From Patescibacteria group bacterium (GTDB lineage Bacteria; Patescibacteriota; Patescibacteriia; 2-01-FULL-39-33), in NCBI GenBank assembly GCA_041649575.1, contig JBAZMW010000005.1:38734-102733 (forward strand): a DNA stretch of 64,000 bases, read 5' to 3'. Numbering within the stretch: the stretch's first letter is position 1; every line of letters begins with the position of its first letter. The notes beneath the pieces were generated by a model. It ran no database searches. It saw only the letters and a list, made by a program, of their open reading frames with translations, and was not told the origin of the DNA. The position numbers were made by a program, and so were the translations under genes. Positions 10,599-43,971 of the stretch are shown in pieces.

Positions 10599-10669
10599 TT
10601 TTTGATTTTTAATAGTCCCGACCAAGCGCGTTAACGCTCGGTCGGGACTAGTTGTAACTGGTTGGCGGA

Positions 10670-11551
10670 TCAGAATTCGAACCGGAGTCCGAGTCCTGCC
10701 ACCAACTTATTGCCGTCGACATAGTCCTTGTCGCCGTCGGTTTGACCCGGTCCGGCGATTTGGTACATCAGAGACGGCACGAGGAACAGCCCTTCGTGCA
10801 GACGGAAGTCGGTGCTGACCACTATCCTGGTGTAGACATAGCCGCCGTCCTTGCCAAGGAACCCGGTGGTTAGGGCGCTTCTGACGCCCAAATCCAGCTT
10901 TTGTTCCTTGCCCAGCGGCAGGTGGAAATTGACACCGGGAAACAGATACCAACCTCCTTGGGGACTGTGGTGGCCAACCTCGCCGTAGTAGGTCAGCTTC
11001 AGGTAAGGTTCGACCCACTTGGCCTTGGTGACCGTGGCTTGGACTTGAGCTCCCCACTGGTCGTCGTCGAGCTTTTCCAGCTCGTTGAAGCCGTAGTAGG
11101 ACAGGTTCAGGTCGAGCTTGAGCCAATCTCTTAGCTGGCATTCACGACCAAGGTAGAGGTCGATCTCGCCCTCAAACGGCGGAGCTGGTTCGGGCGGGGG
11201 GTTGAGCAGCAACTGCAGCTTGCCGACAGCGTCAGCCAGTTTGTCCAGATCGGGATTTTCCGGCACTTGACTGGTCGTCGCCGCTGTTTCGGCGTCGGGT
11301 TCGGCCGCTTCCTGCCGTTCGAACGGGAAGGAAGACCAGATGCCAGCATACCAACCAGACTCACCAAACCTCAAGGTCAGTTCGTTCTCCCAGACCGGCT
11401 GGTCGTGAACTAAGATGCCGGCCTCGGCGATGTAGGCGCCCTTTATTTCGCTGCGCCAGCTACCTTTCAGTTGAAGCTTGCCCGCTTCGTCCGCGCTGGC
11501 GGCGAAGACGATCGAGGTGATGACCAATATTGTACCCATGATTTTCTTCAT
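10670..11551 (-). CDS. Secreted beta-barrel-like outer-membrane protein (C-terminal Phe)
   Basis: Signal peptide MKKIMGTILVITSIVFAASA. Alternating amphipathic strands. Ends ..LGLRFEF with a terminal aromatic as in OMP beta-barrels. Strong SD (AAGGAG). GC-rich segment. Confidence 0.5.
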   Translation of the reverse strand: MKKIMGTILVITSIVFAASADEAGKLQLKGSWRSEIKGAYIAEAGILVHDQPVWENELTLRFGESGWYAGIWSSFPFERQEAAEPDAETAATTSQVPENPDLDKLADAVGKLQLLLNPPPEPAPPFEGEIDLYLGRECQLRDWLKLDLNLSYYGFNELEKLDDDQWGAQVQATVTKAKWVEPYLKLTYYGEVGHHSPQGGWYLFPGVNFHLPLGKEQKLDLGVRSALTTGFLGKDGGYVYTRIVVSTDFRLHEGLFLVPSLMYQIAGPGQTDGDKDYVDGNKLVAGLGLRFEF

Positions 11552-11620
11552 GCTAGTGCTCCTTAGTTGCGGGAACGATTTGCGTGTTCCCTGACAGTCA
11601 ATTGATCCAGTTCATCCGGT

Positions 11621-12952
11621 TCAGGCCATCAGGGATTTGGGCACATGATCTATCCTCTCGAACGCCCCCAGGCTTAGATGTGAAACCGTCACGACCATTA
11701 ATTGCTCGACTACTTCTATTACCGCCAGCAGAACTCTCTCTGGCAGAAGCGTCGGATTGCTGGTCGGCCCGTCTCTAGCGCAGTGCACCAGCGTTTCAGT
11801 ACTGGAGACGGAACAAACCATGGTCGGCTGTCGTTCTTCCAGCGCTTGCGCTCGGGCCAGGGCAGAACAAATCAGCCCGAAGAGCATCAGCAGGCCCACC
11901 GTCGCCAACGCTTTGCGCCTGGCCAAGTCTTGCTCGGCTTGGATTAGCGCCAGGAGTTGGTGGAGCTGGAAGCGTGGCTGACTGGCCAATTCGGCGAGGT
12001 AGGCTTTCTCGGCCGCGGACAACTGATAGCCGCTCGGTTTGTCGCGCAGGTATTCCGCCTTGAGACGCAGGCGTCTCAGCTCGGTGGCCGCCGTGGTTTC
12101 GTGCGGGTAGAGCCAGACATACACCGGCCAACCAACCAGCATTTTGGCGAAACGTAACGGCGCCAAACCTATTTCGCTACGCAACCCTAGGGTGTCGTCA
12201 GCCCAAAGGCGAACGAGGTAGAGGATAAAACAGACCACTATTCCCTTAAGGTAGGTAGTGAGAAGCCACCGGGCGATGGCCAGCCAGTCGATCTTGGGGT
12301 CGGCAATTGCTGTCGCCCTCGAATACCAGTTGCTGTATTGCTCCTCTCTCTTCATCTGTGCCAGACTGTCGAAGTCCTCTTCATTCTTCTTGTCTCGCCA
12401 GCCGTTTTTCATGGCTAGCTGCTGGGCGTCGTCCATACCACTTCCCCAGGCATCAACGTCGAAAGAGTAGCGCAGGGGCATGAGGTTGGCCTTACAAAGA
12501 TCCAGTTGCTTCTGGAGATCTGCAAAGTAGTCTTCGAGGAAGTACTGTTCTTCTTTGGCCAACCCTTGTTGCCAGAGGTTCTTGACTGTGGTCGAGTAGA
12601 ACTTAGCCGTCTCTTCTGGAGACGGCCTGGTCGGCCTGATCTCCGGCAGGATGACACAGTTGTTCATCCGACCGATGATTTGCCACTGTTTTTCGATTTC
12701 TTCGGCCGTCGGGTGATGCACGAAGCAGGCGCCCTTGAAGACAAAGAAGCGGTCTCCTTGCGGATTCCAGGGGATGACTATTCCCTGAATAGCCCAGACT
12801 ACCCCGAGCAGACACAGGATGGCCGTGATTCGGTTCAGCCAGCTGGCTGGTCTCCAAGGCCACCTTGTTTCTGATGGTGGATGGTCGATGTTGCAGTCGT
12901 CGACCAACACTCGCACCGAACCAGCTGGTCCGTCGTGATATCGCCAAGCCAT
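11621..12952 (-). CDS. Hypothetical membrane protein (GC-rich island)
   Basis: 443 aa with a few TM segments and a strong SD (AAGGAGGTG). No recognisable motifs. Confidence 0.5.
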   Translation of the reverse strand: MAWRYHDGPAGSVRVLVDDCNIDHPPSETRWPWRPASWLNRITAILCLLGVVWAIQGIVIPWNPQGDRFFVFKGACFVHHPTAEEIEKQWQIIGRMNNCVILPEIRPTRPSPEETAKFYSTTVKNLWQQGLAKEEQYFLEDYFADLQKQLDLCKANLMPLRYSFDVDAWGSGMDDAQQLAMKNGWRDKKNEEDFDSLAQMKREEQYSNWYSRATAIADPKIDWLAIARWLLTTYLKGIVVCFILYLVRLWADDTLGLRSEIGLAPLRFAKMLVGWPVYVWLYPHETTAATELRRLRLKAEYLRDKPSGYQLSAAEKAYLAELASQPRFQLHQLLALIQAEQDLARRKALATVGLLMLFGLICSALARAQALEERQPTMVCSVSSTETLVHCARDGPTSNPTLLPERVLLAVIEVVEQLMVVTVSHLSLGAFERIDHVPKSLMA

Positions 12953-13049
12953 GGCTTTTGTTCACCTCCTTCCGTATAGATTGTAGAGTGCATTGTTCAG
13001 CGGAATGCTAAACATTATATTTTATACTAATTTCTAGTTTTTGTCAAGT

Positions 13050-13093
13050 TTGAATTTGAAAAAACAAAATCCCCGACTTTAGTCGGGGATTGG
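13050..13093 (-). terminator. Intrinsic terminator of rpsA
   Basis: Hairpin ATCCCCGAC-TTTA-GTCGGGGAT followed on the minus strand by TTTTGTTTTTT. Confidence 0.5.
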
Positions 13094-13104
13094 GTAGTTA
13101 ATTT

Positions 13105-14322
13105 TTATTCTTCTTCTTTTTCTTCTTCCGTCTTTGGTGCTGGCGCTGCTTTTGGCTCTTCGGTTTTTTCCGGTTCAATTTTTTCTTTGGGTTCCGCTGT
13201 TTTTTTGGCTTCTTCGGCCGGCTTTTCTTTTGGCTTGGTCAAACTAAGTCCCAGCCGATGATTTTTGGAATCCATGGAAACAATATAAAAATCCATTTGG
13301 TCGCCGGCCTTGGCGATTTCTTCGATATTATTTATCGGCTTGTCGCTTAATTGGGAAATATGGGCCAAGCCCTGGATGTCTTTGTCTATTTCCACAAACA
13401 AGCCAAAAGGGTTGGCTTTGATTACGGTGCCAGAGATTTTTTGGCCGATCTGAAAGCGATTTTCCAAGCCTTCCCAAGGATCTTTCTGCAGCTTTTTGGT
13501 TGATAAAAATATTTTGGAATTTTCAATGGAGATAATTTCCGCTTTGATTCGCTGGCCCACTTTGACAAAATCATTGGGATCGTCGATTCTTTGCCAGGCG
13601 ATTTCCGAAATGTGAATCAGCCCTTCCAGCTTGTCGAATTCCACAAAAATGCCGAAGTCGGTGACGGCGGTGACCAAGCCATCAACCACCTCGCCCACTT
13701 TATATTTATTGATAATGTCTTGCTGGGTTTCTTCCCAAGCGGCTTTTTCGGAAACTATTAATTTGTCTTCGCCCTCATTGGCGTCAATCACTTTGACTTC
13801 GAATTTTTTGCCGATATAGGATTTGAGAATTTCCAGAATTCGATTTTTGTCGCCGCCAGGCACGCGCGGGTAATGCTCGGGAGACAACTGGGAAACCGGC
13901 AGAAAGCCCACCGTGCTTTCCAGCTTGACCATTAGGCCGCCTTTGTTGGCGTCGGTGACCGTCACCTCGATAATGGAGGCCCCTTTCTCGTATTGTTTGA
14001 TGCTTTGCCAGGCCCTTTGGCGGCCGGCATAGCGGAAAGACAATTCTACTTCGCCGTTTTCGTTTTCCAATTCCAAAACAGTGGCTTCGACTTCGTCGCC
14101 AGGTTTGAGGTTGCGGTATTCATCGGCTTCGCTGTAGCGTTCTTTGCCGCGCACCAAACCGGTGGCGATGCCGTTTAAATCCAGATGCGCTTCGTTTTTG
14201 TTGGCGCTAATAACCGTGCCTCTGACCAAATCGCCGATTTTTGGCAAATTAAAATACTGCTTATCTTCAAGCAGTTTGGCCATAGGTGAATCTTTCTTTT
14301 CTTTCTTTTCCTTAGTTTTCAT
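13105..14322 (-). CDS. rpsA: 30S ribosomal protein S1 (multiple S1 RNA-binding domains)
   Basis: 405 aa with repeated S1-domain signatures (GDLVRGTV.., GEVVDGLVTAVTDFGIFVE, GQKISGTVIKANPFGLFVE) and a Lys/Glu-rich tail. Confidence 0.8.
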   Translation of the reverse strand: MKTKEKKEKKDSPMAKLLEDKQYFNLPKIGDLVRGTVISANKNEAHLDLNGIATGLVRGKERYSEADEYRNLKPGDEVEATVLELENENGEVELSFRYAGRQRAWQSIKQYEKGASIIEVTVTDANKGGLMVKLESTVGFLPVSQLSPEHYPRVPGGDKNRILEILKSYIGKKFEVKVIDANEGEDKLIVSEKAAWEETQQDIINKYKVGEVVDGLVTAVTDFGIFVEFDKLEGLIHISEIAWQRIDDPNDFVKVGQRIKAEIISIENSKIFLSTKKLQKDPWEGLENRFQIGQKISGTVIKANPFGLFVEIDKDIQGLAHISQLSDKPINNIEEIAKAGDQMDFYIVSMDSKNHRLGLSLTKPKEKPAEEAKKTAEPKEKIEPEKTEEPKAAPAPKTEEEKEEE

Positions 14323-14472
14323 AAAAATTTATTTAGCCCTCGTCTTGAATAGCGACAGAGCCCCGCTTTTTAATAATTAAATTAGTGGTTGCGGGTATTA
14401 ATTAGCTAAGCATTAGCATAGCAGATTGACGAGAGAATGTCAATGGAGTATATTTAGAATAATTTATTTTAT

Positions 14473-14530
14473 GTAAATATGTTTTACTTTTTCTTTTCTA
14501 GAAAAGAAAAAGCTAACAAAAAGAAAAAAG
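14473..14530. repeat. Conserved ~58-nt intergenic element, copy B
   Basis: TTTTTCTTTTCTAGAAAAGAAAAAGCTAACAAAAAGAAAAAAGCGCTCGC, about 85% identical to 3013-3070. Confidence 0.45.
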
Positions 14531-14556
14531 CGCTCGCAGAATAATGTTTATAAATC

Positions 14557-14871
14557 ATGTCATTTACTAGAAAAAAAGAGGATTTTGTCTGCGGTAACTG
14601 CGGACACGAAGTTGAGGGCGACGGTTATACCAATCACTGTCCGAAGTGTTTATGGTCTAAGCATGTGGACAAGAATCCCGGCGATCGGCAAGAGGAATGC
14701 GGCGGGCTGATGAAGCCAGTTGATATATATCTGGAGCATCAAAATTGGATTATTGTGCATCAGTGTCAGACTTGCAGCGCCCAGAAGCGCAATCGAGTGA
14801 ATGACGGCGATGATTTTGAAGAGGTGATCAGATTGGAAAAAGAAATAAATGACAAAAAAATAAAGGGCTAA
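14557..14871 (+). CDS. RNHCP-domain zinc-ribbon protein
   Basis: FVCGNCGHEV..YTNHCPKCLWSKHVD..CQTCSAQKRNR: paired CxxC motifs with the NHCP signature of RNHCP domain proteins. Confidence 0.65.
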   Translation: MSFTRKKEDFVCGNCGHEVEGDGYTNHCPKCLWSKHVDKNPGDRQEECGGLMKPVDIYLEHQNWIIVHQCQTCSAQKRNRVNDGDDFEEVIRLEKEINDKKIKG

Positions 14872-14928
14872 AAATAATTGGATTGCTATTAAAAGTAGCG
14901 TTTTAGGCGCTATTTTTTATTTTTTTAA

Positions 14929-14979
14929 GTTATCCACAGAAAAGCTATTGACCATAAATATTAAAAGAGTTAGTATAAT
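14929..14979 (+). promoter_or_regulatory. DnaA-box 11-mer GTTATCCACAG followed by a sigma70-like promoter (TTGACC-17-TAGTATAAT)
   Basis: TTATCCACA at 14930-14938. -35 TTGACC at 14948-14953, a 17-nt spacer, -10 TAGTAT(AAT) at 14971-14979. Identical architecture at 20088-20148. Confidence 0.45.
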
Positions 14980-14984
14980 TATAC

Positions 14985-15239
14985 GAACATTGGAAGGCCT
15001 AGTGAGAGAATCTAGGGAGTAGAAACTCTCACAGAAAAGGCGAGTGCCCTCTATGTACTCAACACCGCGGAACTTTCCAGGGTTCCAACCATCACGCATT
15101 GTACTGGACGAGAGGAGTACACAGGGTAACTCAACGTTGCAAACCGCTAGCTCACGACCCGAGCGCGCATCCGAAGCGTTTAGCAACGCACATCACTCCC
15201 ATCGCCGAGACCATCGCAAGACGGTCTCTTCCTTTTTTT
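14985..15239 (+). ncRNA. Candidate structured small RNA (about 250 nt), class unknown
   Basis: GC-rich segment with no credible ORF. It starts just after the promoter above and ends in a rho-independent terminator (GAGACCATCGCAAGACGGTCTC plus TTCCTTTTTTT at 15207-15239). Not matched by me to tmRNA, RNase P or SRP consensus. Confidence 0.3.
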
Positions 15240-15394
15240 ATGAAAAATTTTTGATTTTAATTTTTTAAAGGTAGTAAGGGATTATATTAGAGACATGAAT
15301 TTATTAAGTCATTTTTTAGATACAAAAAAAGACGGGCATGGAGAGTGAGATTCAACTCTCCGCCCGTCTTCGTGAGGTGCAAAGGCCACTATCG

Positions 15395-16603
15395 TCAGAA
15401 TTTCCACGCCGTTTCGGCGAAACAGCGTGGATTTTCTCGATATTGACCCATGAAGGTGTCCTTTTCTCCCAAAGGCACACCCAGGCCAGCCTTAACCTCG
15501 AAGTCGTCCTTCCTCCAAGTCAGGGACGGTTCAAAGTAGGCGTCGCCGTGTTCAAGGTTCAGAGAGCCGCTGAGCTCCACCGACCAACGACCCGTGTCAT
15601 TGGGAGTATACTTTATCCGGTAGAGCAGGGCTCCGTCGAGGCCTCGACGAAAGTCTTTCGCCCGGAACAAATCCGGGGTTTCTTTCCGAGTCTCGACTTC
15701 GAAAGCGTACTGCAGCAGGACAGACAAGCTGTCTGTTTTCCTGAATGGCTTGTTCCATTCGTGATCCACTCCCACGACACACTGGAGGAAATCGTCGGCG
15801 TTCTTCTGTCTGAAGTAGCCGGCTTCGGCGCGCAGGTTGTAGCCGCTAGAGATTTCCGTCGCCAGGGAGATGGCGATGACTTGTTCTTCGCGGTAGGTGG
15901 GAATAATCTGTTTCGGTAGCTTCAGCTCAAACGACGGAGTGTAGCTCAAGCCGTCGTAGAAGCTTGCGCCCAGGTCCCAGCCCTTTATTGTACAACCAGC
16001 ACGAAGCGCGAGTTGGCCGTGGCCGTTTTCTGGTTCGCCTAGCTCCAGATTGTTTGGGAGCGCTTGTCCCCAACGTTCACTGGCAGGGAGTCTTGACGGG
16101 GTGAACCACGGAACGTAGACCAGTTCCAGGTACTTGTCATAGCCTAGGCGGATATCAACGGCTGGCACTCCCATTCTCTCCCAGTCAATAACATCTGTCA
16201 GGTCGCGGGGACAGATATTGTCGTTTGGCGAGACGGTGTCGGTCACCGACCAGTCGAATACCTGTTTGCCAAGACGTAGCCGAAGCCACTTCCAAGAGGT
16301 TTCTGCGTACAGTTCCCTCGCGCCGACTATCGGTCGGTGTCCAGTCGAGTCGTCGAACACGCCTTGGGCAAATCCGGCGCTGTCCAAGCGAAGGTCGCCT
16401 TCGGCATGAATTAGGAAATGCTTTGAGAATACGGCCGTCACCTTTGGCTTAAGCCGCATTTCTGCAAAAGCATCTTCCGCTTCACTGGACTTGTGGCTGA
16501 AATAGCCATCTCCCCGCAACTCGAGCTGCCCGCCGGTTTTCCATTCCAACCCTTGGGCGACTAGCGACAGGGAGATCAGGAGCAGGATAGTAGTACCTTT
16601 CAT
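15395..16603 (-). CDS. Outer-membrane beta-barrel-like protein (partner of the MMPL/LolA-like cassette)
   Basis: 402 aa. Signal peptide MKGTTILLLISLSLVAQG. Beta-strand-rich. Ends ..ETAWKF (C-terminal Phe). GC-rich. Confidence 0.5.
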   Translation of the reverse strand: MKGTTILLLISLSLVAQGLEWKTGGQLELRGDGYFSHKSSEAEDAFAEMRLKPKVTAVFSKHFLIHAEGDLRLDSAGFAQGVFDDSTGHRPIVGARELYAETSWKWLRLRLGKQVFDWSVTDTVSPNDNICPRDLTDVIDWERMGVPAVDIRLGYDKYLELVYVPWFTPSRLPASERWGQALPNNLELGEPENGHGQLALRAGCTIKGWDLGASFYDGLSYTPSFELKLPKQIIPTYREEQVIAISLATEISSGYNLRAEAGYFRQKNADDFLQCVVGVDHEWNKPFRKTDSLSVLLQYAFEVETRKETPDLFRAKDFRRGLDGALLYRIKYTPNDTGRWSVELSGSLNLEHGDAYFEPSLTWRKDDFEVKAGLGVPLGEKDTFMGQYRENPRCFAETAWKF

Positions 16604-16607
16604 CGCG

Positions 16608-17384
16608 TTACTCCTTTGTCAGGTGAGCGGTTGTGAAGATGGAAGGCTCAATAGAGTCAGGAAACTCTCTCTTCACGACTCGCAACACAGTCGTCCTTCC
16701 TAGCGCGACATTCTCAATCGCGGTAGCGCCAGCTCGCCATAGCCCGCCTTCTTTTGCTTCGACGTCTTTGTTGACAAGCGTTTTGACTAGCCTGTCGGCT
16801 TGGTCGTAGAAGCGAATCTCCCTGGTGATGAAGCTTCTATCTATCAGAAAGACCCTCTTTCCGTAGCCGGATTTGATTCCAGGCTTGGATCGCGCTTCAA
16901 CCGCCCAGACGCCCTCCTTGCACTCCAGTGTCTGGTAATCGAAGTCATCGAGGCGTTCGCCGGTGAGTTGCCTGGCGTCCTCGTAGCTGAAATCAGTCCC
17001 GGCGAAATACTTACTCTCGTCACCGACAGAGATTCGTCGAACCTTGTCGAACGATGGCAGCTTGAGCCATAGGTCGTCAGCATTTCCCGGATGACGGTTG
17101 ACCAGCAGGCCTAACCCGCGATCCATGGCTGGTTCGCCAAAGATCATGCACGTCTTGTCCTCGCCATTTGGCTCGAACAAGATCCAGCGAGTATAGGCCT
17201 TTTCCGTCTTCCGGCCGCTGTATCCCGTCACGACGACTTGCACGTTCTCGATTTCGTAGACTGACTGGCGATACAGCTGCCAGCTTTTGCCTACGATTTC
17301 TCGGCCGTTGTCGGTGGTGGTTTGCGCCGAAGCGACAACTGTCGACAACATGGCCGCTATTACTATTAGCATGGTTTTCTTCAT
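16608..17384 (-). CDS. LolA-like outer-membrane lipoprotein-sorting-like protein
   Basis: Start placed at MKKTMLIVIAAM (ATG 17384, RBS GGGAGA) with a signal peptide. Only the genomic position next to the MMPL gene supports the LolA-like/DUF1329-type call; no LolA motif was identified. The longer track ORF overlaps the MMPL gene and is rejected. Confidence 0.5.
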   Translation of the reverse strand: MKKTMLIVIAAMLSTVVASAQTTTDNGREIVGKSWQLYRQSVYEIENVQVVVTGYSGRKTEKAYTRWILFEPNGEDKTCMIFGEPAMDRGLGLLVNRHPGNADDLWLKLPSFDKVRRISVGDESKYFAGTDFSYEDARQLTGERLDDFDYQTLECKEGVWAVEARSKPGIKSGYGKRVFLIDRSFITREIRFYDQADRLVKTLVNKDVEAKEGGLWRAGATAIENVALGRTTVLRVVKREFPDSIEPSIFTTAHLTKE

Positions 17385-17446
17385 GTTGTGTCTCCCGATG
17401 TGGTTGAGCCGGGCAAGCAACCAAAGGTTGCCGCCCGGCTTGTTTC

Positions 17447-19894
17447 TCATTTCTTTTCTCGCCCTACCACGCAGAGTGGCAGAGCGGCCAGCATGGCCAC
17501 CATGGCGCCGAAGCCGCAAGCGATTAGCATGGCAATCATCACCCATCCCAGCCGTGCGACCGGAATGAAATTTGATGCCGTAAGAGGCAAGAAACAAAAG
17601 CAGTTCAGCGTAATGTCAACCAAAACCGCTCGTCCCTTGTCTCTCATACTGCCTCGCAGCGCTTCAAGTCGGCCTGTGGTCTGGATGATCGGTTGATACG
17701 CAGCTACCAAGTACAAGCCGAAGTCCATGGCCGCGTTTATCGCCATGGCGGTAACGCAGGCAGTGGCTTGGTCTAGCGGTATTCTTAGTACCATCATTAA
17801 TACAGCGATGACCGCAGTAGCGAAGATAAACGGCACGTTCATGACCAGTCCGGTGCGCCAGCTGCTAAGGCACGTCGTACCTCCTCTTATTCCGCGGTTG
17901 CGCCAGAAGATCCAGAGCCCGCAGATAATAGCGACAATCCATTGCGAAGTCAGCAGGTTTAGCGGCTTGCCTTCACGGATGTATTTGTCGTTACGAGGAT
18001 AGATCGGTACTTTGCCAAACGGCAAGATTTGCAGTCCGGGAAATTGCTCTCCCAGTTCTCTTATCTCGTCGCAGAGCTGGCCCAGGACATTGGAGTCTTC
18101 CATGGCTGTAGAGGCAAAGATCACGACCCCTTGGTCGAACCACAGTTGTTGCTGCACTGGTGGTCCTACGTCCCAGGAGATGATCTCCCAGATGTCGTGA
18201 GCTTGCTGAGTGGTTGTTGGCCACTTTACGCCATATGACTCTCGCGATACCACGCCGACCGTGTCTAGAGCGGATTTGACTTCTCGGACATTGGCCAGCC
18301 TGGCGATCGCGTTTTGGAACTCGACCGCTTTTTGGATGAAGGCGGGGTCGTCCACCGTTGTCGCTCTTGAGGGCATAACCAGGACTGACACGCGGTCGAA
18401 ACCGTACCTGTCGTTCTCGTTGAGGAATTTGCTGGCGCGATATACTATCGTGCCAGGGATATATTCCAAGGGTCTGGTCCGGACTTCTATGAAGTCAAAG
18501 TCCTTGCTAACCCCAGGGATATAATCCAAACTGATCATGCCGATCGTGGCAACAACCAGCGCCCCAACCAGAGACAGTGACAGCCAGCCAATCTTTCGGT
18601 AGGCAAAGCGCCCTTTCTTGTTTCGGCCGATGACAGCGGTGATCAGACGGACGATGCCACAGAGGAATCTGTCCCAGATCGCCGCCGCCCAGGCTATACG
18701 ACTCAGACTGTTTTTCACAGATACCGCTTCGCCACCCACCAACGAGTGGAGGGCTGGCAAAAACAGTAGTGATAACAGGATGAGATACGCGATGCCGAGA
18801 CTGGCGAAAATCCCTACCTCCATAATTCCTCTGACGCCGATCTGGTAGAGGGTCAGGAAGTTGAGGATGGCAATCAGCGCTGTCACGCCTATCACGCCAT
18901 TGATGGATCGGGATCGGCGCCAGACAGCAGCCATCGTGGCCTGGTTGTCGGCTAGTCGGTTTTCGTTGTAGGCACAGAACTTGTGCACTGCGAACGAAAT
19001 GCCGGCTACGATGATGGCGGTGTCAACCAGCAGGAAATACACCCGTTCGTAAACAGGCAGTCCTGCTATTTGTGCCAGCCCGATTGATCCCCGCGCCCAG
19101 ATAAAGCAGATCAAAACCACGAGAGTGGCAATCACTGCCTGTCTTAGCGATCTTAGAGACACCCAGGCGATGAGGCAGACAAGACCCAGTCCGATCGTAG
19201 ACAGCCTCATGACGTCGGCTGTAAGCGAAGAGAAGATCAGGCCTCGGCCAATCACCCAGCCAGCCGGCATGACTCTTTCGAATCTGCCTGTCGGCTTAAT
19301 GTCTGACTTGAAAAACCACTCCCATTCGGGGATCTCCCTCTGCTCCAGCATATTCGCCACGTTTCGAAACGTCTTCATCTCCTCGTAGCCGACCGGTAGC
19401 AGCAGGATTATTTGGGAGTAATCAAATTCTTTCCCAATCAGCAGGCCGTATACCCCGGAATCCCGGCGAACATCAGCTTTCCATCTTTCGATGTCAAACC
19501 GAGGATCGTCCAGGAGTTTCTGGGATATGTAGGGGTCACTGGAGAGAGCGTCACCAGTGTCTTGGTAGTGGGCCGCTTTGGACAAACTCAGAATTCCAAA
19601 ACCCGGAAAGCTTTTTTCCAGCGTTTCCGTGAACCAAGAGACGTACTCCATGTCTTCTTTGGTGATGGCTTTTGGAAACTGAACTACGAAAGAAATGGCA
19701 TCTCCGGTTTTCAGGCCTTGAGAAGCCAGTCCTTTCACTCGTTCATCTAGGAGGCGGTAGGGGTCTTGCTTGTTAAGCAGGGCGTCGTCGAGATCTCCCG
19801 CTTTTTTGACGTAGAGATTGCCATACAACATCGGTACGGTCAATACCAATACGGCGATCACTACAACCAGAGCAAAACGCTTGTCGTGCTTCAT
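17447..19894 (-). CDS. MMPL/RND-superfamily exporter
   Basis: 815 aa. Two blocks of about 6 TM helices each follow large extracytoplasmic loops, typical of MMPL/RND (HpnN-like) architecture. RBS GGGAGGA. Confidence 0.75.
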   Translation of the reverse strand: MKHDKRFALVVVIAVLVLTVPMLYGNLYVKKAGDLDDALLNKQDPYRLLDERVKGLASQGLKTGDAISFVVQFPKAITKEDMEYVSWFTETLEKSFPGFGILSLSKAAHYQDTGDALSSDPYISQKLLDDPRFDIERWKADVRRDSGVYGLLIGKEFDYSQIILLLPVGYEEMKTFRNVANMLEQREIPEWEWFFKSDIKPTGRFERVMPAGWVIGRGLIFSSLTADVMRLSTIGLGLVCLIAWVSLRSLRQAVIATLVVLICFIWARGSIGLAQIAGLPVYERVYFLLVDTAIIVAGISFAVHKFCAYNENRLADNQATMAAVWRRSRSINGVIGVTALIAILNFLTLYQIGVRGIMEVGIFASLGIAYLILLSLLFLPALHSLVGGEAVSVKNSLSRIAWAAAIWDRFLCGIVRLITAVIGRNKKGRFAYRKIGWLSLSLVGALVVATIGMISLDYIPGVSKDFDFIEVRTRPLEYIPGTIVYRASKFLNENDRYGFDRVSVLVMPSRATTVDDPAFIQKAVEFQNAIARLANVREVKSALDTVGVVSRESYGVKWPTTTQQAHDIWEIISWDVGPPVQQQLWFDQGVVIFASTAMEDSNVLGQLCDEIRELGEQFPGLQILPFGKVPIYPRNDKYIREGKPLNLLTSQWIVAIICGLWIFWRNRGIRGGTTCLSSWRTGLVMNVPFIFATAVIAVLMMVLRIPLDQATACVTAMAINAAMDFGLYLVAAYQPIIQTTGRLEALRGSMRDKGRAVLVDITLNCFCFLPLTASNFIPVARLGWVMIAMLIACGFGAMVAMLAALPLCVVGREKK

Positions 19895-20087
19895 GTTCTA
19901 TATCCTCCCGAAGCCATTTCAGGCCCCGTAGTTTAGGTCTTAATTGTCAACGTTCTTGGCTTTAAGTTGCTTTTTAAGCAACTATTAATATTAACATATT
20001 TATTTTTTTATGTCAAGTATTATTAAAGTAATATTATCTTTAAAATGCTGTTATAAATATTTTATTTTGTTAATATTTTATTTTTGA

Positions 20088-20148
20088 GTTATCCACAGCT
20101 ATTGATTTTATTGCTATTGACAAACTTATATTTTTTTGCTAGTATAAT
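20088..20148 (+). promoter_or_regulatory. DnaA-box 11-mer GTTATCCACAG followed by a sigma70-like promoter (TTGACA-17-TAGTATAAT)
   Basis: TTATCCACA at 20089-20097. TTGACA at 20117-20122, a 17-nt spacer, TAGTAT(AAT) at 20140-20148. Confidence 0.45.
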
Positions 20149-20154
20149 CATACT

Positions 20155-20330
20155 AAGTAGTGTACCTTGGCTTCATCTTTGGGCAGCTCTCTATAGTAGG
20201 GGTAGAGGGCAAGTAGTTGTGAGGCCGATTGCTGCGGCGATCGCGACCAAAATCGACAGGGCGGACCTAGTTCGCCCATCCCCTCATTCTGAAGTGGCTG
20301 GCACAGGTATGTGTTCAGCCCCTTTTTTGT
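20155..20330 (+). ncRNA. Candidate small RNA (about 175 nt) ending in a terminator, class unknown
   Basis: Begins after the promoter above. GC-rich with internal hairpins (for example GGGCG..CGCCC). Ends with GGCTGGCACAGGTATGTGTTCAGCC plus CCTTTTTT (20296-20328). The overlapping 94-aa ORF starts upstream of the promoter and is judged spurious. Confidence 0.25.
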
Positions 20331-20345
20331 TTAAGTGGTTAGATG

Positions 20346-20374
20346 TTGACAAAATTTTATACTTGTGATACAAT
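20346..20374 (+). promoter_or_regulatory. Sigma70-like promoter of the methyltransferase gene
   Basis: TTGACA (20346-20351), 17 nt, TACAAT (20369-20374). The RBS AAGGAGACGGG precedes the ATG at 20444. Confidence 0.45.
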
Positions 20375-20443
20375 AATATGAAACCCTCTTGGTTTCGTTT
20401 GGCACATTGAAAGCCGAATTATTCGGCAACAAGGAGACGGGAC

Positions 20444-21412
20444 ATGTCGCACAGAGGAAGTCTAGGAAGACTTTTGCGACGCCATCCCGCGTCGCCAAAA
20501 GTAGCAGCCGAGATGATTCGTCGTCGCACCAGGATTCACTTCGCGCAAGTCACTGACGATTTGATTCCGGATGCCTTCGAGATATACGAAGGGGATTGTT
20601 TCAAGACCGCGATCAAGAAGCATCCCAGGGTGAAAGGGTTCATAAAGGATTTCTGGCGGTGGAATGAATACGCCTTGTCGCTTATGAACCAGAACTCATT
20701 CCCCTACATCAGCATGCAGCAGCTTCTGGCCAAGATGATCGCTCCCTTTACCGGGGAAGTTCTGGCCGACATCGGCTGTGGCGCTGGTGATTTCTGTGCT
20801 CGTTTGCTTCAGCAAGACGGACACTGGATCCGGAAGATCTTCGCTGTCGATATTGATGCTTGGGGCTCACTCGCCAGGGTGCCGCAGACTCTCAAGGATG
20901 CTGGGTACAGGGGGAAAGTGGCCTTGGCTCAAGACTCGACGATGTCCAGACTGCCAATCTGGGACGAAACCGTGGACTGTGTTGTTTCCAGTCTGGGCGG
21001 TGTCACCTATGCGGGTTGGTGGTTCGAAGACGGCGAGCTGGTTTGTGAAGGAAGGGAGGCACTGCGGAGAAGCCTGAAAGACATCCGTCGCATTCTGAAG
21101 CCGGGTGGGTATCTAGGATTTTCAGGTTTGATGCCGAATCCCGACTTCATGATGATCTTCAAGTATTCGCTGTGGGAGCCGCTACGTCACTGTCGCCTCA
21201 AGCCGTTGTGGATGACTCTTAAGCACGGCTTGCGGATCAAGAAGATCTCCGCTTTCATGCACGAGTGTGAGTGCAAGCAGACCGCGCACTACCTCACCCT
21301 GGAGGAGTGGGCTGCTTATCTAAAGGAAGCGGGATTCGAAGTTGTCGACGCTAGCGTCGGCGAGTCGTACGCTAAGCAGGGCATCGTAGTAGTCGCACGT
21401 AAGGTCAGTTGA
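20444..21412 (+). CDS. Class I SAM-dependent methyltransferase
   Basis: Motif I VLADIGCGAGDF. 322 aa. GC-rich. Confidence 0.7.
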   Translation: MSHRGSLGRLLRRHPASPKVAAEMIRRRTRIHFAQVTDDLIPDAFEIYEGDCFKTAIKKHPRVKGFIKDFWRWNEYALSLMNQNSFPYISMQQLLAKMIAPFTGEVLADIGCGAGDFCARLLQQDGHWIRKIFAVDIDAWGSLARVPQTLKDAGYRGKVALAQDSTMSRLPIWDETVDCVVSSLGGVTYAGWWFEDGELVCEGREALRRSLKDIRRILKPGGYLGFSGLMPNPDFMMIFKYSLWEPLRHCRLKPLWMTLKHGLRIKKISAFMHECECKQTAHYLTLEEWAAYLKEAGFEVVDASVGESYAKQGIVVVARKVS

Positions 21413-21424
21413 CTTCGATCCTCT

Positions 21425-21470: not shown

Positions 21471-21507
21471 ATAATGATAAAATATTTATATAAAGACGGG
21501 AAGAATT

Positions 21508-23151: not shown

Positions 23152-23191
23152 CTTATGCCAGCAAAACAATTTTTGCTAAAAGGTTGTCTTT

Positions 23192-25087: not shown

Positions 25088-26188
25088 ATGGGAACTGCAG
25101 TGTCTACGTCGCCAACGCCGACTTCCACCGAGACGGCGGAAGAAAGCGTCCCCGACCACCATTCGGAAAGTGAGGTGGCAGGAGAATTGACGAGGCTGTA
25201 CGCTTTCACCTGGGATTTGGGAGAGAAAATGCAGTGTTTCTCCGCGCTCGGGCTGAACGTACCTCCCGCCAACGCCAAGATCTACACCGAGACGGTAAAC
25301 GACGTGATCAACGAGCTCAACCGCGTTCTCAAACCGACGCAAGCCAGAGTGGAGGCCAGGTCGACGCAGGATTTGGCCAGGGCAATCGTGTCCAGGGCCT
25401 TGCGTCATCAATCGGATCTCAGGTCGCGTGCTATGCGAGAATCGTTTGTCGTCAGCACCTGTCCGGAGATCGCCAATATCCGCCAGGGCGTTTCCTTGCA
25501 GATCAATCGTCTCATCGATGAGAACGGTCGGGTGATTGGCCTGGGTCCGCGTCCGGGTACTGAGCCAATCGAGGACCAAATGGAGGCCATCGCACACGCT
25601 TCGGGTGGGCATCCGGTGATACTCATGGAGGATGGAGCGTTCACCGGCGGCACGATGCGTTTTGTGATCGAGAAGATGCGCGAGTATCGTCTCCAGGTGA
25701 TCGCTGTGGTCATCGGCATGGCCTTTCCTACGGCCAAAGAGAAGATCGCCGAGGTCTTCGACGGTGAGATTATCTGCGAGGAGGAGAAAGACTGGCTGGA
25801 CTGGATGCCCGACCACGACTTCTTCCCCTTCGTGCCCAACAGCGGCCGAGTATTCGGCGTTTCTTGGCGAGGCAATCTGGGCCCGCTCTACACTCGCGAG
25901 GGTATCAGTCTGAGCGCGCCATACATCCAACCCTTCGCTCCGTCGAGCAAGTGGGCGAGTATCCCGGAGGCGAGCTTCCTGGAATTCTCGCGTTTCTGTC
26001 TGGACAAGACGTTGCGGATTTTCCAGGATCTCTGCCACCGCAACGGCGATCGCCAGCTCACTATCGGTGACATCATCGACACAAAACCGCGCGTCAGCGT
26101 TCCGATGGGCATGGGCCAGAAGCGCTTTCCGTCTCCGAGTACGCGGATTCTCGATTACCTCAAAGACTGCATCGAGGAGATCGACTGA
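25088..26188 (+). CDS. Phosphoribosyltransferase (type I PRT fold)-domain protein, function unknown
   Basis: PRPP-binding-like motif VILMEDGAFTGGTMR. GC-rich. Start chosen at MGTAVS (RBS AGAGAGG); the track ORF begins at 25007. The fully overlapping minus-strand ORF is rejected. Confidence 0.45.
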   Translation: MGTAVSTSPTPTSTETAEESVPDHHSESEVAGELTRLYAFTWDLGEKMQCFSALGLNVPPANAKIYTETVNDVINELNRVLKPTQARVEARSTQDLARAIVSRALRHQSDLRSRAMRESFVVSTCPEIANIRQGVSLQINRLIDENGRVIGLGPRPGTEPIEDQMEAIAHASGGHPVILMEDGAFTGGTMRFVIEKMREYRLQVIAVVIGMAFPTAKEKIAEVFDGEIICEEEKDWLDWMPDHDFFPFVPNSGRVFGVSWRGNLGPLYTREGISLSAPYIQPFAPSSKWASIPEASFLEFSRFCLDKTLRIFQDLCHRNGDRQLTIGDIIDTKPRVSVPMGMGQKRFPSPSTRILDYLKDCIEEID

Positions 26189-27565: not shown

Positions 27566-28120
27566 TTAGAGCGCCAATAACCAGTAGCTGCGATCGGTTT
27601 CCGCGCCGTCGCGAACGTCAAGCTCGCGAAAGCCCAAATTGGCGTAGAGTGAACGCGCCGGTACGGCGCGCATGTCGGTGCGCAGGATAGCCTGCTGGTG
27701 GCCCAAGGTCTTGGCGCGCGCAATCAGTATGCGGCTTAGCAACTTACCCAGGTTTTTGCCGCGAAAACGCGAGTCGACGCCCAGCTCATCAACGTAGAAT
27801 ACGCGTCGGTCATCAGTGAAGATGAAGTCGAGCTGTCGGGAGCTGGCGATCAGTCTCATATCCTCTTGACTGACGGTATAGCCAAGCGTGAAGCCAGCGA
27901 GTTCTGGTTGCGGCTTACCGTTTTGTGCAAAAACCAGTAAGGCGGCAACCCCGGGTAGCCGGAGATGATTAGCAATATCGCCTTTGACTCCCCGCGGTGT
28001 CCAAAAGTCCTCTAGCCACGGCGGCTCTTTCCAGATTTGACAATACAGGGCAGCGTAAGCATCGTGTATCCAACTGTCGAGATGGGATATGTTGAATTCC
28101 GAGATTTCGAAGTTCGCCAT
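27566..28120 (-). CDS. GNAT family N-acetyltransferase
   Basis: Motif A FRGKNLGKLLL. 184 aa. GC-rich. Confidence 0.6.
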   Translation of the reverse strand: MANFEISEFNISHLDSWIHDAYAALYCQIWKEPPWLEDFWTPRGVKGDIANHLRLPGVAALLVFAQNGKPQPELAGFTLGYTVSQEDMRLIASSRQLDFIFTDDRRVFYVDELGVDSRFRGKNLGKLLSRILIARAKTLGHQQAILRTDMRAVPARSLYANLGFRELDVRDGAETDRSYWLLAL

Positions 28121-28460: not shown

Positions 28461-29849
28461 ATGTCAAACAAAACCGTAAAGCCAGAAATTCTGGGTGGCT
28501 TCCGCGATATGCTACCCAGGGACGCATTGATGTTGCAGGAGATAGTCGACATTGTCAGAAGGGTGTATGAATCCTTTGGCTTCTTGCCGCTGGAGACGCC
28601 CTGTATGGAACGGCAAGAGGTGCTGACGGGCGGCGATCCGCATTTCAACAAAACCATCTTCATTGCCCGCACTTTGCGCGGCACGGAAGACAGGGGCGTT
28701 GAGGAGAGCTGGGACAACGACTTCGCGCTGAGGTTTGATCTGACTGTGTCTCTGGCTCGGGTGGTGGCTGCCTATCCCGACTTGCTCAAGCCGTTCAAGC
28801 GCTACCAGTTGGGCAAGGTGTGGCGCGGCGAGAGCCAGCAGTCGGGGCGTTTTCGTGAGTTCTTTCAGTTGGACTTTGACACCATCGGTTCGCGTTCGCT
28901 CAACGCCGACATCGAGACCATCCAGGTGATTTACGAGTGCCTCAAGGAGCTCGGCATCGCCAACTTCACTATTCGGTTCAACACCCGTAAGGTTCTCAAC
29001 GGGTTGGCCCAGGTGGTGCAAGTGGGTGATCGGGCCAGGAATTTCTTCCGCATTCTCGACAAGCTGGACAGGATCGGCGCCGACGGAGTGAAGGCCGATT
29101 TGATGCGTCAGCCGGACAACGAGTTCGACGAATCGGCCGTGGCCTTGAGTGAGTCGGAAGCGGACAAGGTTCTGGGTTTTTTGTCCATCAAGGATGAACG
29201 ACCCGAGGACACCTTGGCACGGCTGGAGGAGTTTTTTGCCGGTGCTCAAGGCGATGGTCAGGAAGGTCTGGCCGAACTGCGGGGCATTGTCGAGGCGCTT
29301 GATCTCTTGGGCATTCCTCGCGCCAACTGGAAGCTGGATTTGTCGGTAGCCCGTGGCCTGGACTACTACACCGGGCCGGTGTTTGAGACGATACTCAATG
29401 ACTATCCGGAGCTCGGTTCGGTGGTCGGCGGCGGGCGTTTCGATGGCCTGACCAACCGTTTCATCCCGGACAGCAATATTGCGGGCGTGGGTGCCTCGGT
29501 CGGCGTGGACCGGCTGATCGTGGGTATGCAGAAACTCGGTCTGCTCAAGGCCAAGGACTCTCTGACTCAGGTGCTGGTCACCATCTTCGATCCCAAGTAC
29601 GAGCGCGAGTCAAGGGCGATGGCGGCCTACTTGAGACGTTTCGGAGTACGAACCGAGCTCTACCTGGGCGAGGATCGCACACTGCGGGCGCAGTTCGCTT
29701 ACGCCACCAAGAAGGGCATCCCGTTCGTCGTGGTTCTGGGCGAAGAGGAAATCGAGGCCGATAAGGTAGCCTTGAAGGATATGGCCAGTCGCAGCCAGGA
29801 GCTCTTGACAAGAGAGGAGGTTCTTGCTAAGCTGGCAAGAGCAGAATAA
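28461..29849 (+). CDS. hisS: Histidine--tRNA ligase (class II aaRS)
   Basis: Start at MSNKTVKPE (RBS AAGGAAAGG). ILGGFRDMLP N-terminal motif, GGGRFDGL (HisRS GGGRYDGL motif), C-terminal anticodon-binding domain. The tRNA-His gene follows. Confidence 0.85.
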   Translation: MSNKTVKPEILGGFRDMLPRDALMLQEIVDIVRRVYESFGFLPLETPCMERQEVLTGGDPHFNKTIFIARTLRGTEDRGVEESWDNDFALRFDLTVSLARVVAAYPDLLKPFKRYQLGKVWRGESQQSGRFREFFQLDFDTIGSRSLNADIETIQVIYECLKELGIANFTIRFNTRKVLNGLAQVVQVGDRARNFFRILDKLDRIGADGVKADLMRQPDNEFDESAVALSESEADKVLGFLSIKDERPEDTLARLEEFFAGAQGDGQEGLAELRGIVEALDLLGIPRANWKLDLSVARGLDYYTGPVFETILNDYPELGSVVGGGRFDGLTNRFIPDSNIAGVGASVGVDRLIVGMQKLGLLKAKDSLTQVLVTIFDPKYERESRAMAAYLRRFGVRTELYLGEDRTLRAQFAYATKKGIPFVVVLGEEEIEADKVALKDMASRSQELLTREEVLAKLARAE

Positions 29850-29870: not shown

Positions 29871-29947
29871 GGGCATGTAGCTCAGTTGGCCAGAGCGCAG
29901 GGTTGTGGCCCCTGAGGTCGTGGGTTCGAGCCCCATCGTGCCCCCCA
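29871..29947 (+). tRNA. tRNA-His (anticodon GTG) with encoded CCA
   Basis: Acceptor GGGCATG/CGTGCCC, D-arm GCTC AGTTGGCCAGA GAGC, anticodon arm CAGGG-TTGTGGC-CCCTG (GTG at positions 34-36), T-arm GTGGG TTCGAGC CCCAT, discriminator C plus CCA. Position -1 is T rather than the usual encoded G. Confidence 0.85.
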
Positions 29948-32195: not shown

Positions 32196-32876
32196 ATGGC
32201 GAAAGTCAAGCCGGAAGTCGAGCCGGAAGTCAAGTCGGGAGAATCGAAATCGAAGGTAGTGAGAGTGAAAGTGGAGGGGGTTTACCCAATCCTCATGAAT
32301 CCCATGACCGAGGCCACGCTCGACAGCTTGATCACGGGCAATCGCCTGCCGCCGACCAAGGATTTGGCGTTCGAGGAGGTCGCGAGCAGGAAGATTTACC
32401 GTGAAGGCGGCGAGCCCGATGGCGCTATCGGTATTCCCGTGGAGAATCTGTGCTCCTGTCTGGTGCGGGCGGGACGCGAAGTCAAGAATGGCAAGAAGCA
32501 GATCAGCACGGCGGAAAGCACCACGCTGTTCTCATTTCTCTCCATTCGCGGCGAGTTCCTGCCGTTCACCAACGATCTGACCCGGCACGGCGACGGCAAG
32601 GGTTGGGTTGTCGACAAACGTCGCGGTTGCCTGCACGACAAGGGCAAATCCACGGCGGTCGGCATCCTGCGGCCGAAATTCCCCGTCTGGGCATTCGAGT
32701 TCGTCATGGACCTCGACTTGACCGAGATCGACGAGGGCGTCGTGCGGAAGCTTGTCGAGGTCGCGGGCAAGAAAGTCGGCCTGGGCGATTTCCGGCCCAC
32801 CTGCAAGGGGCCGTTCGGTCGGTTCCAGGTCGTGAGCTGGGAAGAGGCCAAGAAAGAAGTTCCGGCCGCGGCCTAG
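32196..32876 (+). CDS. Hypothetical protein (226 aa), first gene of the hairpin-array island
   Basis: GC-rich ORF with a good RBS and no motif recognised by me. Immediately followed by the hairpin repeat array. Confidence 0.55.
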   Translation: MAKVKPEVEPEVKSGESKSKVVRVKVEGVYPILMNPMTEATLDSLITGNRLPPTKDLAFEEVASRKIYREGGEPDGAIGIPVENLCSCLVRAGREVKNGKKQISTAESTTLFSFLSIRGEFLPFTNDLTRHGDGKGWVVDKRRGCLHDKGKSTAVGILRPKFPVWAFEFVMDLDLTEIDEGVVRKLVEVAGKKVGLGDFRPTCKGPFGRFQVVSWEEAKKEVPAAA

Positions 32877-32949
32877 CTCCGGTGTACATCATGTAACACG
32901 GCTACCCTGTCACGTGGGGTTTTCCAACCTCGTGCCAGGCACGCCGCAC

Positions 32950-35042: not shown

Positions 35043-35150
35043 ATGGTGTCAGGCCAAAATCAATAACAAGCAGTTCTTTGACACTTTGGCCTGTGAGAAT
35101 ATAGGAAATTGAAGAAGCGAAGTAAAACCAGGCGAGAAGGAAGACAAATC

Positions 35151-37486: not shown

Positions 37487-37540
37487 TTTAAAATTAATTG
37501 CTAAATTCTAGGTTTTAAGCTAAAATATTCGTAAATCCCC

Positions 37541-43862: not shown

Positions 43863-43971
43863 TGCTTTTCTCCTTGTATCAGCCAATGTGCGTAGGGTTT
43901 ATTATATGTTATAAAGCTTCTTTCGTCAAGCTTTCTAGAATTTTTACTATTTTTATGTATAATAAAGGTAT

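Follow-up and report, generated by a model that had tools for sequence, protein, structure and literature searches.

The window analyzed here, a 64-kb stretch (64,000 nucleotides) of contig JBAZMW010000005.1, is a genuine, correctly assembled piece of the chromosome of a Falkowbacteria-like bacterium within the Patescibacteria, or Candidate Phyla Radiation (CPR), and its region 10620-21420 carries two laterally derived envelope modules, one of which is established in several CPR lineages. The first module (block 1) pairs bar293, a small beta-barrel of outer membrane (OM) type, with a 443-aa membrane protein, hyp443; the second (block 2) is an operon for a resistance-nodulation-division (RND) transporter of the MMPL/HAE3 type, a LolA-like soluble carrier, and a larger OM-type barrel, p402. 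Both lie in GC-rich blocks that alternate with an AT-rich genomic backbone. We put at about 70% the probability of the reading developed below, namely that this is a genuine CPR segment in which a GC-rich class of genes was acquired laterally, including the two envelope modules, and that the operon would act as a relay across the envelope. Coordinates of the features are collected in Table 1.

The initial annotation, which was made from the sequence alone, had described GC-rich blocks alternating with AT-rich genes, and this alternation is real. The GC content of 1-kb windows ranges from 0.365 to 0.599 across the 64 kb, with a standard deviation of 0.055 as compared to a binomial expectation of 0.016 and a maximum of 0.032 after shuffling of 30-nt blocks. 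By gene, two classes without overlap were found, 11 genes at GC 0.53-0.60 and 28 at 0.36-0.51, and the switches between them lie in intergenic spacers near the block limits 10620-13000, 15300-21420, 25000-26200, 27500-29950, and 31900-37500. All three codon positions are elevated in the GC-rich class, with GC at the third position (GC3) of 0.63-0.79. The description of its proteins as arginine-rich holds for nine of the 11, whose K/(K+R) is 0.27-0.47, and fails for bar293 (0.65) and for p226, a phage-family protein of block 5 (0.61); the range across the 28 AT-rich genes is 0.54-0.90. Shine-Dalgarno (SD) motifs of the AAGGAG type had also been reported ahead of the GC-rich genes, and when an SD was called as a core of at least 5 nt of AAGGAGG located 6-14 nt upstream of the start, 9 of 11 GC-rich genes but only 1 of 28 AT-rich genes had one (Fisher p = 2e-6). 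SD presence is a discriminator of the two gene classes that is independent of GC, and the AT-rich backbone is lysine-rich and typically lacks the motif. Tetranucleotide z-scores of the GC-rich blocks correlate with those of the AT-rich class at r 0.39-0.56, as compared to 0.70 +/- 0.05 for size-matched AT-rich controls. Stable RNAs were considered as a source of the GC-rich blocks and rejected, as Rfam (at gathering thresholds) and ARAGORN returned only tRNA-His.

The AT-rich genes are CPR housekeeping genes: tsaD, tsaE, a T2SSE ATPase, ftsH, a CDP-alcohol phosphatidyltransferase, rpsA, a 7TM histidine kinase, thrS, argS, ileS, ruvA, typA, a Mur ligase, rpoB, and rpoC. The gene order of the window is shared with L046, a 315-kb Falkowbacteria contig of GC 0.34, and the backbone synteny with relatives covers tsaE, T2SSE, FtsH, the CDP-OH transferase, rpsA, RNHCP, the histidine kinase, LDcluster4, thrS, and argS. 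L043, a closer relative (GCA_964350585.1, GC 0.36), exhibits partial synteny, with RNHCP, AstE, LDcluster4, hisS, thrS, and argS in one neighbourhood. Proteins of the window (MFA5029914-930, recorded as ‘MAG: Patescibacteria group bacterium’) can be found in NCBI, JGI, ENA, and Logan and sit on contigs of 113,686 and 114,430 bp. In an independent assembly, two Logan contigs of run SRR8542065 are 100% identical to positions 14498-29894 and 9095-14263 (the former contig is 25.8 kb long and should extend beyond block 5, and the comparison covered its first 15.4 kb), and these matches cover the boundaries of blocks 1, 2, and 3 on either side and that of block 4 on its left. The suggestion that the contig is chimeric is thereby refuted over these GC boundaries.

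Block 2 contains a tight three-gene operon (15395-19894, minus strand) with one 4-nt overlap and one 4-nt gap between its genes, and each of its products is what the initial annotation had proposed. The MMPL protein reaches 25.7 bits against PF03176 (cut-off 20.5), which places it in the MMPL family; at 56 bits against TIGR00921 (HAE3, cut-off 351.9) and a partial 24.4 bits against TIGR03480 (HpnN, cut-off 751.9) it is a curated member of neither. Its family profile has a single match in the PDB (HpnN, 6WU0, E 1.4e-5), and a crude hydropathy scan gave 11 segments and, where they would be expected, two loops of ∼190-200 aa, the RND layout of 1+5 / 1+5 having 12. The LolA-like gene was called at 280 aa, overlapping the MMPL stop by 4 nt; its start is probably at 17384 (MKKTML..., 258 aa), which would give the protein a signal peptide with no lipobox Cys. 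This protein matches PF17131 at 126.6 bits (threshold 30) over profile positions 1-183 of 184 and, in its C-terminal part, DUF1329 at 32.2 bits. Its sequence matches in the PDB are 9TP6, 3BK5 (both E 1e-18), and 4Z48, and they are titled ‘outer membrane lipoprotein-sorting protein’.

The third product, p402 (402 aa), has the signal peptide, the predicted closed barrel fold, and the C-terminal WKF that are generally looked for in OM beta-barrels, and both p402 (AWKF) and bar293 (RFEF) end in Phe, as had been noted. Its AlphaFold2 (AF2) model (pLDDT 82.5, pTM 0.79) has about 18-20 strands, and in Foldseek it matches MOMP, OmpU, and the 18-strand exporter AlgE (E ∼1e-10 to 1e-11, TM 0.48-0.56). 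By sequence, p402 falls below the threshold of DUF1302 (PF06980; 12.1 bits against 23.2, E 0.096). Three of 12 members of its family have a DUF1302 match (best E 1e-4), a Pfam search with the family gave only sub-threshold DUF1302 and Wzi, and the family profile found only a chance match in the PDB. The methyltransferase gene that diverges from the operon has a 53% orthologue just downstream of the cassette in the CPR locus L010 and a 55% orthologue in the Falkowbacteria contig L046, where it adjoins FadL and 3-hydroxyacyl-CoA dehydrogenase genes; both orthologues are GC-elevated.

When GTDB was scanned by profile, with each species represented by one genome, 36 loci were identified, with the three genes adjacent and co-oriented in ∼25 of them and a p402-type gene adjoining the LolA-like gene in most. 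Hosts outside the CPR are Burkholderiales, Rheinheimera, Vibrio, Caulobacteraceae, Syntrophobacterales, Desulfuromonadales, and Nitrospirae. Within the CPR, the operon lies beside rpsP, a KH-domain gene, and trmD on a 586-kb unlabelled contig (L002), between tyrS/argS and small CPR genes in Falkowbacteria (L004-6/L014), in two ‘Patescibacteria group’ metagenome-assembled genomes (MAGs; L009 and L010), and on a polished 1.3-Mb Moraniibacteriota contig (L017). Judged by these homologues, the operon is a mainly diderm family, common in Desulfobacterota, Nitrospirota, and Proteobacteria, that is also present in at least five CPR loci. Two contigs under other labels may be mis-binned CPR contigs: a 4-kb ‘Gammaproteobacteria’ contig (L007, CAYIRS010000070.1) has an MMPL gene 92% identical to that of the Patescibacteria MAG L010, and a contig of GC 0.37 from a ‘Bdellovibrionales’ MAG (L016, CAZDHE010000002.1) has a cassette that shares 75-83% identity with the copy in Moraniibacteriota.

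For the block 2 operon genes, identity to homologues does not go above 52%, and the nearest, at 49-52%, include other CPR. In neighbour-joining trees of all three proteins, the window falls in a subclade with CPR, Desulfobacterota, and Nitrospirae at 45-52% identity, and the Moraniibacteriota copy is on a separate branch; because this copy branches elsewhere, the trees suggest that the operon entered the CPR more than once. For each of the three genes, the barrel among them, comparison of CPR-context pairs gave a dN/dS of 0.08-0.22 (dS is partly saturated, making the ratios approximate), and the C-terminal aromatic residue of the barrel is kept in all CPR copies. With dN/dS far below 1 and this residue retained, the operon is, on the evidence of substitution patterns, maintained by purifying selection in the CPR.

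Block 1 has the character of a mobile pair. A signal peptide, a predicted closed barrel fold, and a C-terminal FEF give bar293 (293 aa) the general features of an OM beta-barrel; its AF2 model (pLDDT 89.6) has ∼12-14 strands, and the Foldseek matches of this model (OmpG, NanC, KdgM, and PcoB; best E 1e-7) are at the top all OM barrels. It resembles TorF porins (TIGR02001) in being a small barrel of that strand number with a signal peptide and in a weak match to the family, as given also by 9 of 28 relatives; it differs in that its own score of 23.8 bits is below the cut-off of 47.15, in a helical insert of ∼45 residues (80-125), and in its pairing with the 443-aa membrane protein. The bar293 family is rare, with 72 relatives among 1.84 billion representatives, and a single-protein search of JGI metagenomes found no close relatives. 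An alignment of 28 sequences was too divergent to serve as a query, and a smaller alignment, of five sequences, yielded 4 loci. The partner, hyp443, had no match in Pfam, NCBIfam, PADLOC, or PHROG. On an unrelated metagenome contig (L049, GC 0.53), a 46% homologue of hyp443 lies directly upstream of a 55% homologue of bar293, in the same order as in the window. L046 lacks block 1, and only 68 bp separate its CDP-OH transferase gene from rpsA; block 1 is thus a 2.5-kb insertion. These comparisons support the interpretation of block 1 as a two-gene insertion, apparently a mobile pair of foreign origin.

The closest characterized relative of the operon is AmeABCD of Castellaniella defragrans, in which an RND pump of the HAE3 type is combined with a LolA-superfamily protein (DUF1329), a barrel (DUF1302), and one further periplasmic protein, and which is required for monoterpene tolerance (PMC6394551). 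Block 2 is a compact three-gene variant of AmeABCD-type HAE3 systems: an HAE3-type RND pump, a LolA-superfamily periplasmic protein, and an OM beta-barrel are encoded together in both, and the structures cited for AmeB (3BK5, 4Z48) are PDB matches of the LolA-like protein of the window. Unlike the four-component AmeABCD, the operon has three genes, with no AmeC/BNR (Ycf48-like) gene either in the window or in the Pfam-annotated cassettes (L002, L004, L062-L064). Its carrier is a 258-aa PF17131 protein with a partial DUF1329 match as compared to 451 aa for AmeB, its barrel has 402 aa and falls under the DUF1302 threshold as compared to 605 aa for AmeA, and its host is a presumed monoderm CPR bacterium. 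In Pseudomonas, clusters of DUF1302, DUF1329, BNR, and RND genes are co-fit on fatty esters (bioRxiv 10.1101/2020.07.04.188060). HpnN (6WU0) is likewise an HAE3 RND protein that moves a membrane lipid outward, in its case a hopanoid, and does so without a dedicated carrier or barrel (PMC6394551); the match of the window MMPL protein to it is weak and partial, and the window operon adds a carrier and a barrel. With the Lol pathway (LolCDE, LolA, LolB) the window shares a soluble carrier of the LolA fold, but the energy source would be an RND pump rather than the ABC transporter LolCDE, there is neither a LolB nor a lipobox on neighbouring proteins, and the carrier belongs to PF17131 and not to LolA proper. 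Carriers of the LolA fold are presumed to shield acyl chains between two membranes.

Genes near other copies point in the same direction. In L064 the operon follows ketoacyl synthase, acyl carrier protein, and acyltransferase genes, a GT4 glycosyltransferase and Wzy_C are encoded close to it in L063 and L002 (by Pfam), and in L009 it is accompanied by open reading frames (ORFs) of like size and the same order as these GT4/Wzy_C neighbours, the comparison being by size only. From the analogy with AmeABCD and HpnN, together with these lipid-gene neighbours, we infer a relay from pump to LolA-like carrier to barrel. The proton-driven RND pump would pull a hydrophobic molecule, such as a lipid or glycolipid, out of the cytoplasmic membrane and pass it to the LolA-like carrier, which would shield the cargo in the aqueous wall space and either bring it to the beta-barrel, located in an outer lipid layer, or pick it up there. 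The operon may thus export or otherwise traffic a lipid, glycolipid, or other hydrophobe, with the substrate class, the direction, and the location of the barrel being those suggested by analogy. In the collection of papers searched, none joins Patescibacteria and MMPL, and our searches gave nothing relevant on CPR with FadL or BamA. Another diderm-type barrel in CPR, a FadL/Toluene_X protein of 393 aa, is encoded by a GC-elevated, SD-led gene at 11985-13166 of L046, and the slot between RNHCP and the methyltransferase in L046 holds this FadL barrel and the 3-hydroxyacyl-CoA dehydrogenase where the window has the RND operon.

The GC-rich class extends to genes that are at home in the CPR. Both the hisS gene and the tRNA-His of block 4 were present as annotated (TIGR00442, 346 bits; GTG anticodon). 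All named best matches of HisS are Patescibacteria, with identity from 73% down to ∼50%, and by these matches HisS is of CPR type. The gene lies near the LDcluster4 gene in all three relatives (including L043 and L046); in L046 it is of the AT-rich class (GC3 0.22, no SD), whereas in L043 and the window it is of the GC-rich class. Orthologues of the 366/393-aa protein of block 3 are found in L043 (61%, GC-elevated) and in L046 (42%). Relative to genomes whose AT-rich genes follow the mean GC of each genome, the methyltransferase orthologue is elevated by 9 points in L046 and by 7 in L010, and in L043 the 393-aa protein is elevated by 10 and HisS by 9. The GC3 of genes in the window and in L043, genomes that are 9 GC points apart, is correlated (r = 0.95, n = 6, p = 0.003). 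Because the class is common to orthologues in relatives, the mosaic is a property of the lineage that predates species splits. High GC and SD motifs likewise coincide in the genes of L043, L046, and L004. GC elevation, a preference for Arg over Lys, and the SD motif are linked gene by gene, core housekeeping genes lack an SD altogether, and orthologues in related CPR keep their class.

Under our reading, at least five islands of a GC-elevated, arginine-rich, SD-led class would interrupt an AT-rich, lysine-rich, SD-less backbone, and this class would consist of genes that the lineage acquired laterally from various sources and on several occasions, rather than in one recent event. An assembly chimera or contamination, in which GC-rich proteobacterial pieces had been joined to a CPR contig, is what the compositional alternation taken alone would speak for, but a second assembler yielded identical sequence over the block boundaries, intergenic spacers coincide exactly with at least ten of the alternations, unlike a chimeric join, the same operon lies among housekeeping genes on other CPR contigs of up to 1.3 Mb, and the GC-rich hisS is of CPR type; we assign this explanation next to no probability. 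A recent acquisition from a GC-richer diderm, with donor composition and SDs kept and not yet ameliorated, would account for the sharp transitions at gene boundaries, the raised GC3, the arginine-rich proteins, and the strong SDs, and would fit the absence of block 1 from the syntenic L046 and the mostly diderm distribution of the operon family. The operon also has a larger GC contrast in the window (+9 to +11 points) than in L009 (+3 to +5) or L002 (+2 to +5), if about equal to that in L004, L010, and L017 (+2 to +10), so that a fresh re-acquisition of the operon in this lineage could have occurred. As the general explanation put forward in the initial annotation, however, recent transfer is not supported: the nearest operon homologues are at 49-52%, some of them CPR, and purifying selection acts on the operon in five or more further CPR loci; the HisS matches are all CPR; in relatives of much lower genome GC, raised GC and an SD are seen again in the orthologues of HisS, the 393-aa protein, and the methyltransferase; and no signature is common to the blocks. 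We regard it as improbable. Foreign origin as such is supported for blocks 1 and 2, given the absence of block 1 from L046 and the mainly diderm operon family, and the outcome that would have spoken against it, best matches of both gene classes in one lineage, was seen for part of the GC-rich class, as in HisS.

The two classes could also reflect selection within the genome rather than ancestry, with accessory genes, envelope genes, and some enzymes being SD-led and using GC-rich codons for translational control while the core lacks SDs. Conservation of class between orthologues of genomes 9-12 GC points apart, the recurrence of the GC-SD coupling in L043, L046, and L004, and the position of HisS, kept in all three relatives, are consistent with this. 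It is nevertheless quite improbable in our estimation, as the switch of HisS between L046 and L043/window argues that class is not a fixed property of a gene, blocks 1, 2, and 5 are clearly accessory insertions with patchy distribution, and we know of no mechanism for gene-specific GC3 equilibria of +20 points. For the operon in particular, one may ask whether it is a non-functional relic, carried along after transfer and useless without an OM. The CPR have been reported as monoderm, and in L062, a contig of an unplaced taxon, the barrel gene following the MMPL and LolA-like genes (11287-12532) was called as ORFs of 90 and 289 aa, an apparent split that may represent a frameshift or decay of the third component. 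Set against this are intact ORFs with signal peptides, the C-terminal aromatic residue in all CPR copies, dN/dS of ∼0.1 for the three genes, and retention in at least five divergent CPR lineages, and a relic is accordingly very improbable.

Several observations weigh against our own reading. Patescibacteria are described as lacking an OM (PMC12102498, PMC8871954), which leaves the barrel without an obvious home, and the 64 kb of the window encode nothing of the BAM, Lpt, or Lol machineries. Tetranucleotide correlations between the GC-rich blocks are only r 0.30-0.42, with no common signature, although the segments are short and the test is weak; since the blocks do not group, a single donor for all of them, which we had considered, is unsupported. 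The operon trees are neighbour-joining trees without support values, and with best identities of at most 52% no donor is identifiable. For HisS, the 393-aa protein, and the methyltransferase, which are syntenic and of CPR type, lateral origin is only something we infer. Orthologues that are 55-72% identical in amino-acid sequence still show the GC/SD offset, which simple amelioration should by then have removed; a signature kept by orthologues is not what the simple amelioration model of horizontal transfer predicts. The blocks resemble genomic islands in their atypical GC, codon, and amino-acid usage, in their insertion relative to syntenic relatives, and in their accessory functions, and they differ in that their signature is common to orthologues in related species. 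Of the usual marks of a recent island only the atypical composition was found; donor similarity and absence from sister lineages were not (only block 1 is absent from L046), nor were mobility signatures (integrase, flanking repeats, a tRNA target). The Pfam matches of the window include no integrase or transposase, and at the edges of blocks 1 and 2 no tRNA-bounded ends, direct repeats, or att-like sites were noted, no repeat scan having been made there.

Block 5 (31.9-37.5 kb) is a 5.7-kb insert between thrS and argS that looks like a mobile or phage-derived element, with no flanking repeats noted. Its p226 has no match in Pfam, NCBIfam, or PADLOC, no Cas match, and a single weak partial match in GenBank phages; its helicase matches PADLOC typeIV_DinG over the full length (E 2e-38) and phrog_2488 (E 1e-31), and neither has relatives in IMG/VR. 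At least 18 copies of a hairpin (consensus C..GG-GGCGRRnnn-loop-nnnYYCGCC) flank the helicase gene. The 9-bp stem is 99.4% paired, with compensatory changes in five of nine pairs, which none of 500 shuffles equalled; G-U pairs favour the plus strand, on which all 17 strict copies lie. Downstream of about half of the copies lie ACTAATCA(A/G)TG and an AT-rich palindrome of 42 nt. The hairpins were found neither elsewhere in the window nor in any related locus compared, they have no Rfam match at E ≤1, and a search of IMG/VR with the hairpin-plus-CTAATCA motif gave nine single chance matches without hairpin context. No ORF of at least 100 aa lies in 32877-35108. A CRISPR array was rejected, as the copies are 60-90% alike rather than identical and irregularly spaced (97-1022 nt), and so was a Type IV-A CRISPR-Cas system, for which only the DinG-like helicase matches, with no Csf1-3/Cas6 and no identical-repeat array.

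Elsewhere in the window, the GC-rich patch at 43690-43870 in the initial annotation is real and corresponds to a 42-codon SD-led ORF followed by a terminator-like hairpin; the 221-nt region around this ORF folds better than shuffles (z = -3.8). The isoleucine-tRNA ligase ORF (40020-43670, 1216 aa) has a histidine-phosphatase domain (His_Phos_1, residues 520-688, E 2e-28) inserted inside its class I catalytic domain. The T2SSE ORF (3725-6757) encodes 1010 aa with two ATPase units, its Falkowbacteria orthologue having 566 aa, and is either a tandem fusion or a duplication. An AT-rich nucleotidyltransferase and its small partner (23240-24180) match PADLOC PDC-M05A/B (E 1e-30 and 2e-13) and form a putative toxin-antitoxin module of MNT/HEPN-like type, a candidate defence system. 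In the GC-richer right end of the window, a 216-nt tandem repeat (63357-63753; 1.8 copies, 83% match) is probably inside a repetitive surface-protein gene.

Table 1. Features of the window, with positions counted from its first nucleotide.
Feature	Position	Strand	Description	GC	SD motif
bar293 (block 1)	10670..11551	-	signal peptide and small OM-type beta-barrel, distantly TorF-like, ends RFEF	0.58	AAGGAG
hyp443 (block 1)	11621..12952	-	membrane protein with ∼4 hydrophobic segments, partner of bar293	0.56	AGGAGG
p402 (block 2)	15395..16603	-	operon gene 3; signal peptide and large OM-type beta-barrel, weakly DUF1302-like, ends AWKF		
LolA-like soluble carrier (block 2)	16608..17450	-	operon gene 2; PF17131, TP_0789-like		
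MMPL/HAE3-type RND transporter (block 2)	17447..19894	-	operon gene 1; 815 aa; PF03176		
SAM-dependent methyltransferase (block 2)	20444..21412	+	class I, UbiE/BioC-like; divergent from operon	0.54	AAGGAG
366/393-aa protein (block 3)	25088..26188	+	CPR-conserved protein	0.57	GAGAGG (SD-like)
GNAT acetyltransferase (block 4)	27566..28120	-		0.55	AAGGAG
hisS (block 4)	28461..29849	+	histidine-tRNA ligase; TIGR00442, 346 bits	0.57 (GC3 0.72)	
tRNA-His (GTG)	29871..29947	+	sole RNA gene found; adjoins block 4 only		
p226 (block 5)	32196..32876	+	phage-family protein, 226 aa; phrog_4652, E 5e-15	0.60	
Hairpin array (block 5)	32945..34903	+	non-coding; at least 14 GGGGCGRR...YYCGCC hairpins		
DinG/XPD-family helicase (block 5)	35109..36938	+	Pfam Helicase_C_2, DEAD, DEAD_2	0.58	
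Second hairpin group (block 5)	36992..37487	+	four hairpins of the same family, the last followed by T8		
42-codon GC-rich ORF	43738..43863	-	MPTEILPEHLQAV...; GC hairpin and T-run downstream		AAGGAG, 8 nt upstream

The CPR are regarded as monoderms that cannot synthesize lipids of their own, and the source of their membrane lipids is an open question. An operon that lies among housekeeping genes under apparent purifying selection is a concrete candidate for the trafficking of lipids or other hydrophobes across the CPR envelope or at the interface between symbiont and host, and an OM-type barrel in a presumed monoderm raises the question of where beta-barrels are assembled in CPR cells. In this clade GC, Arg/Lys usage, and SD presence split the genes into two classes that orthologues inherit, and compositional ‘islands’ here are thus not readable as recent transfers or mis-assemblies. 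A broader proposal, speculative and in our view doubtful, is that Falkowbacteria-like and other CPR lineages keep an envelope-spanning lipid conduit of RND pump, LolA-like carrier, and barrel, with FadL in relatives, and that the coupling of GC and SD marks a second translational regime. If this were true, either these lineages would own an unrecognised outer lipid layer, or the epibiont would secrete the barrel and insert it in the outer membrane of a diderm host and so let host lipids into a cell unable to make its own, and GC elevation together with SD leaders would mark a laterally circulating gene pool common to the CPR.

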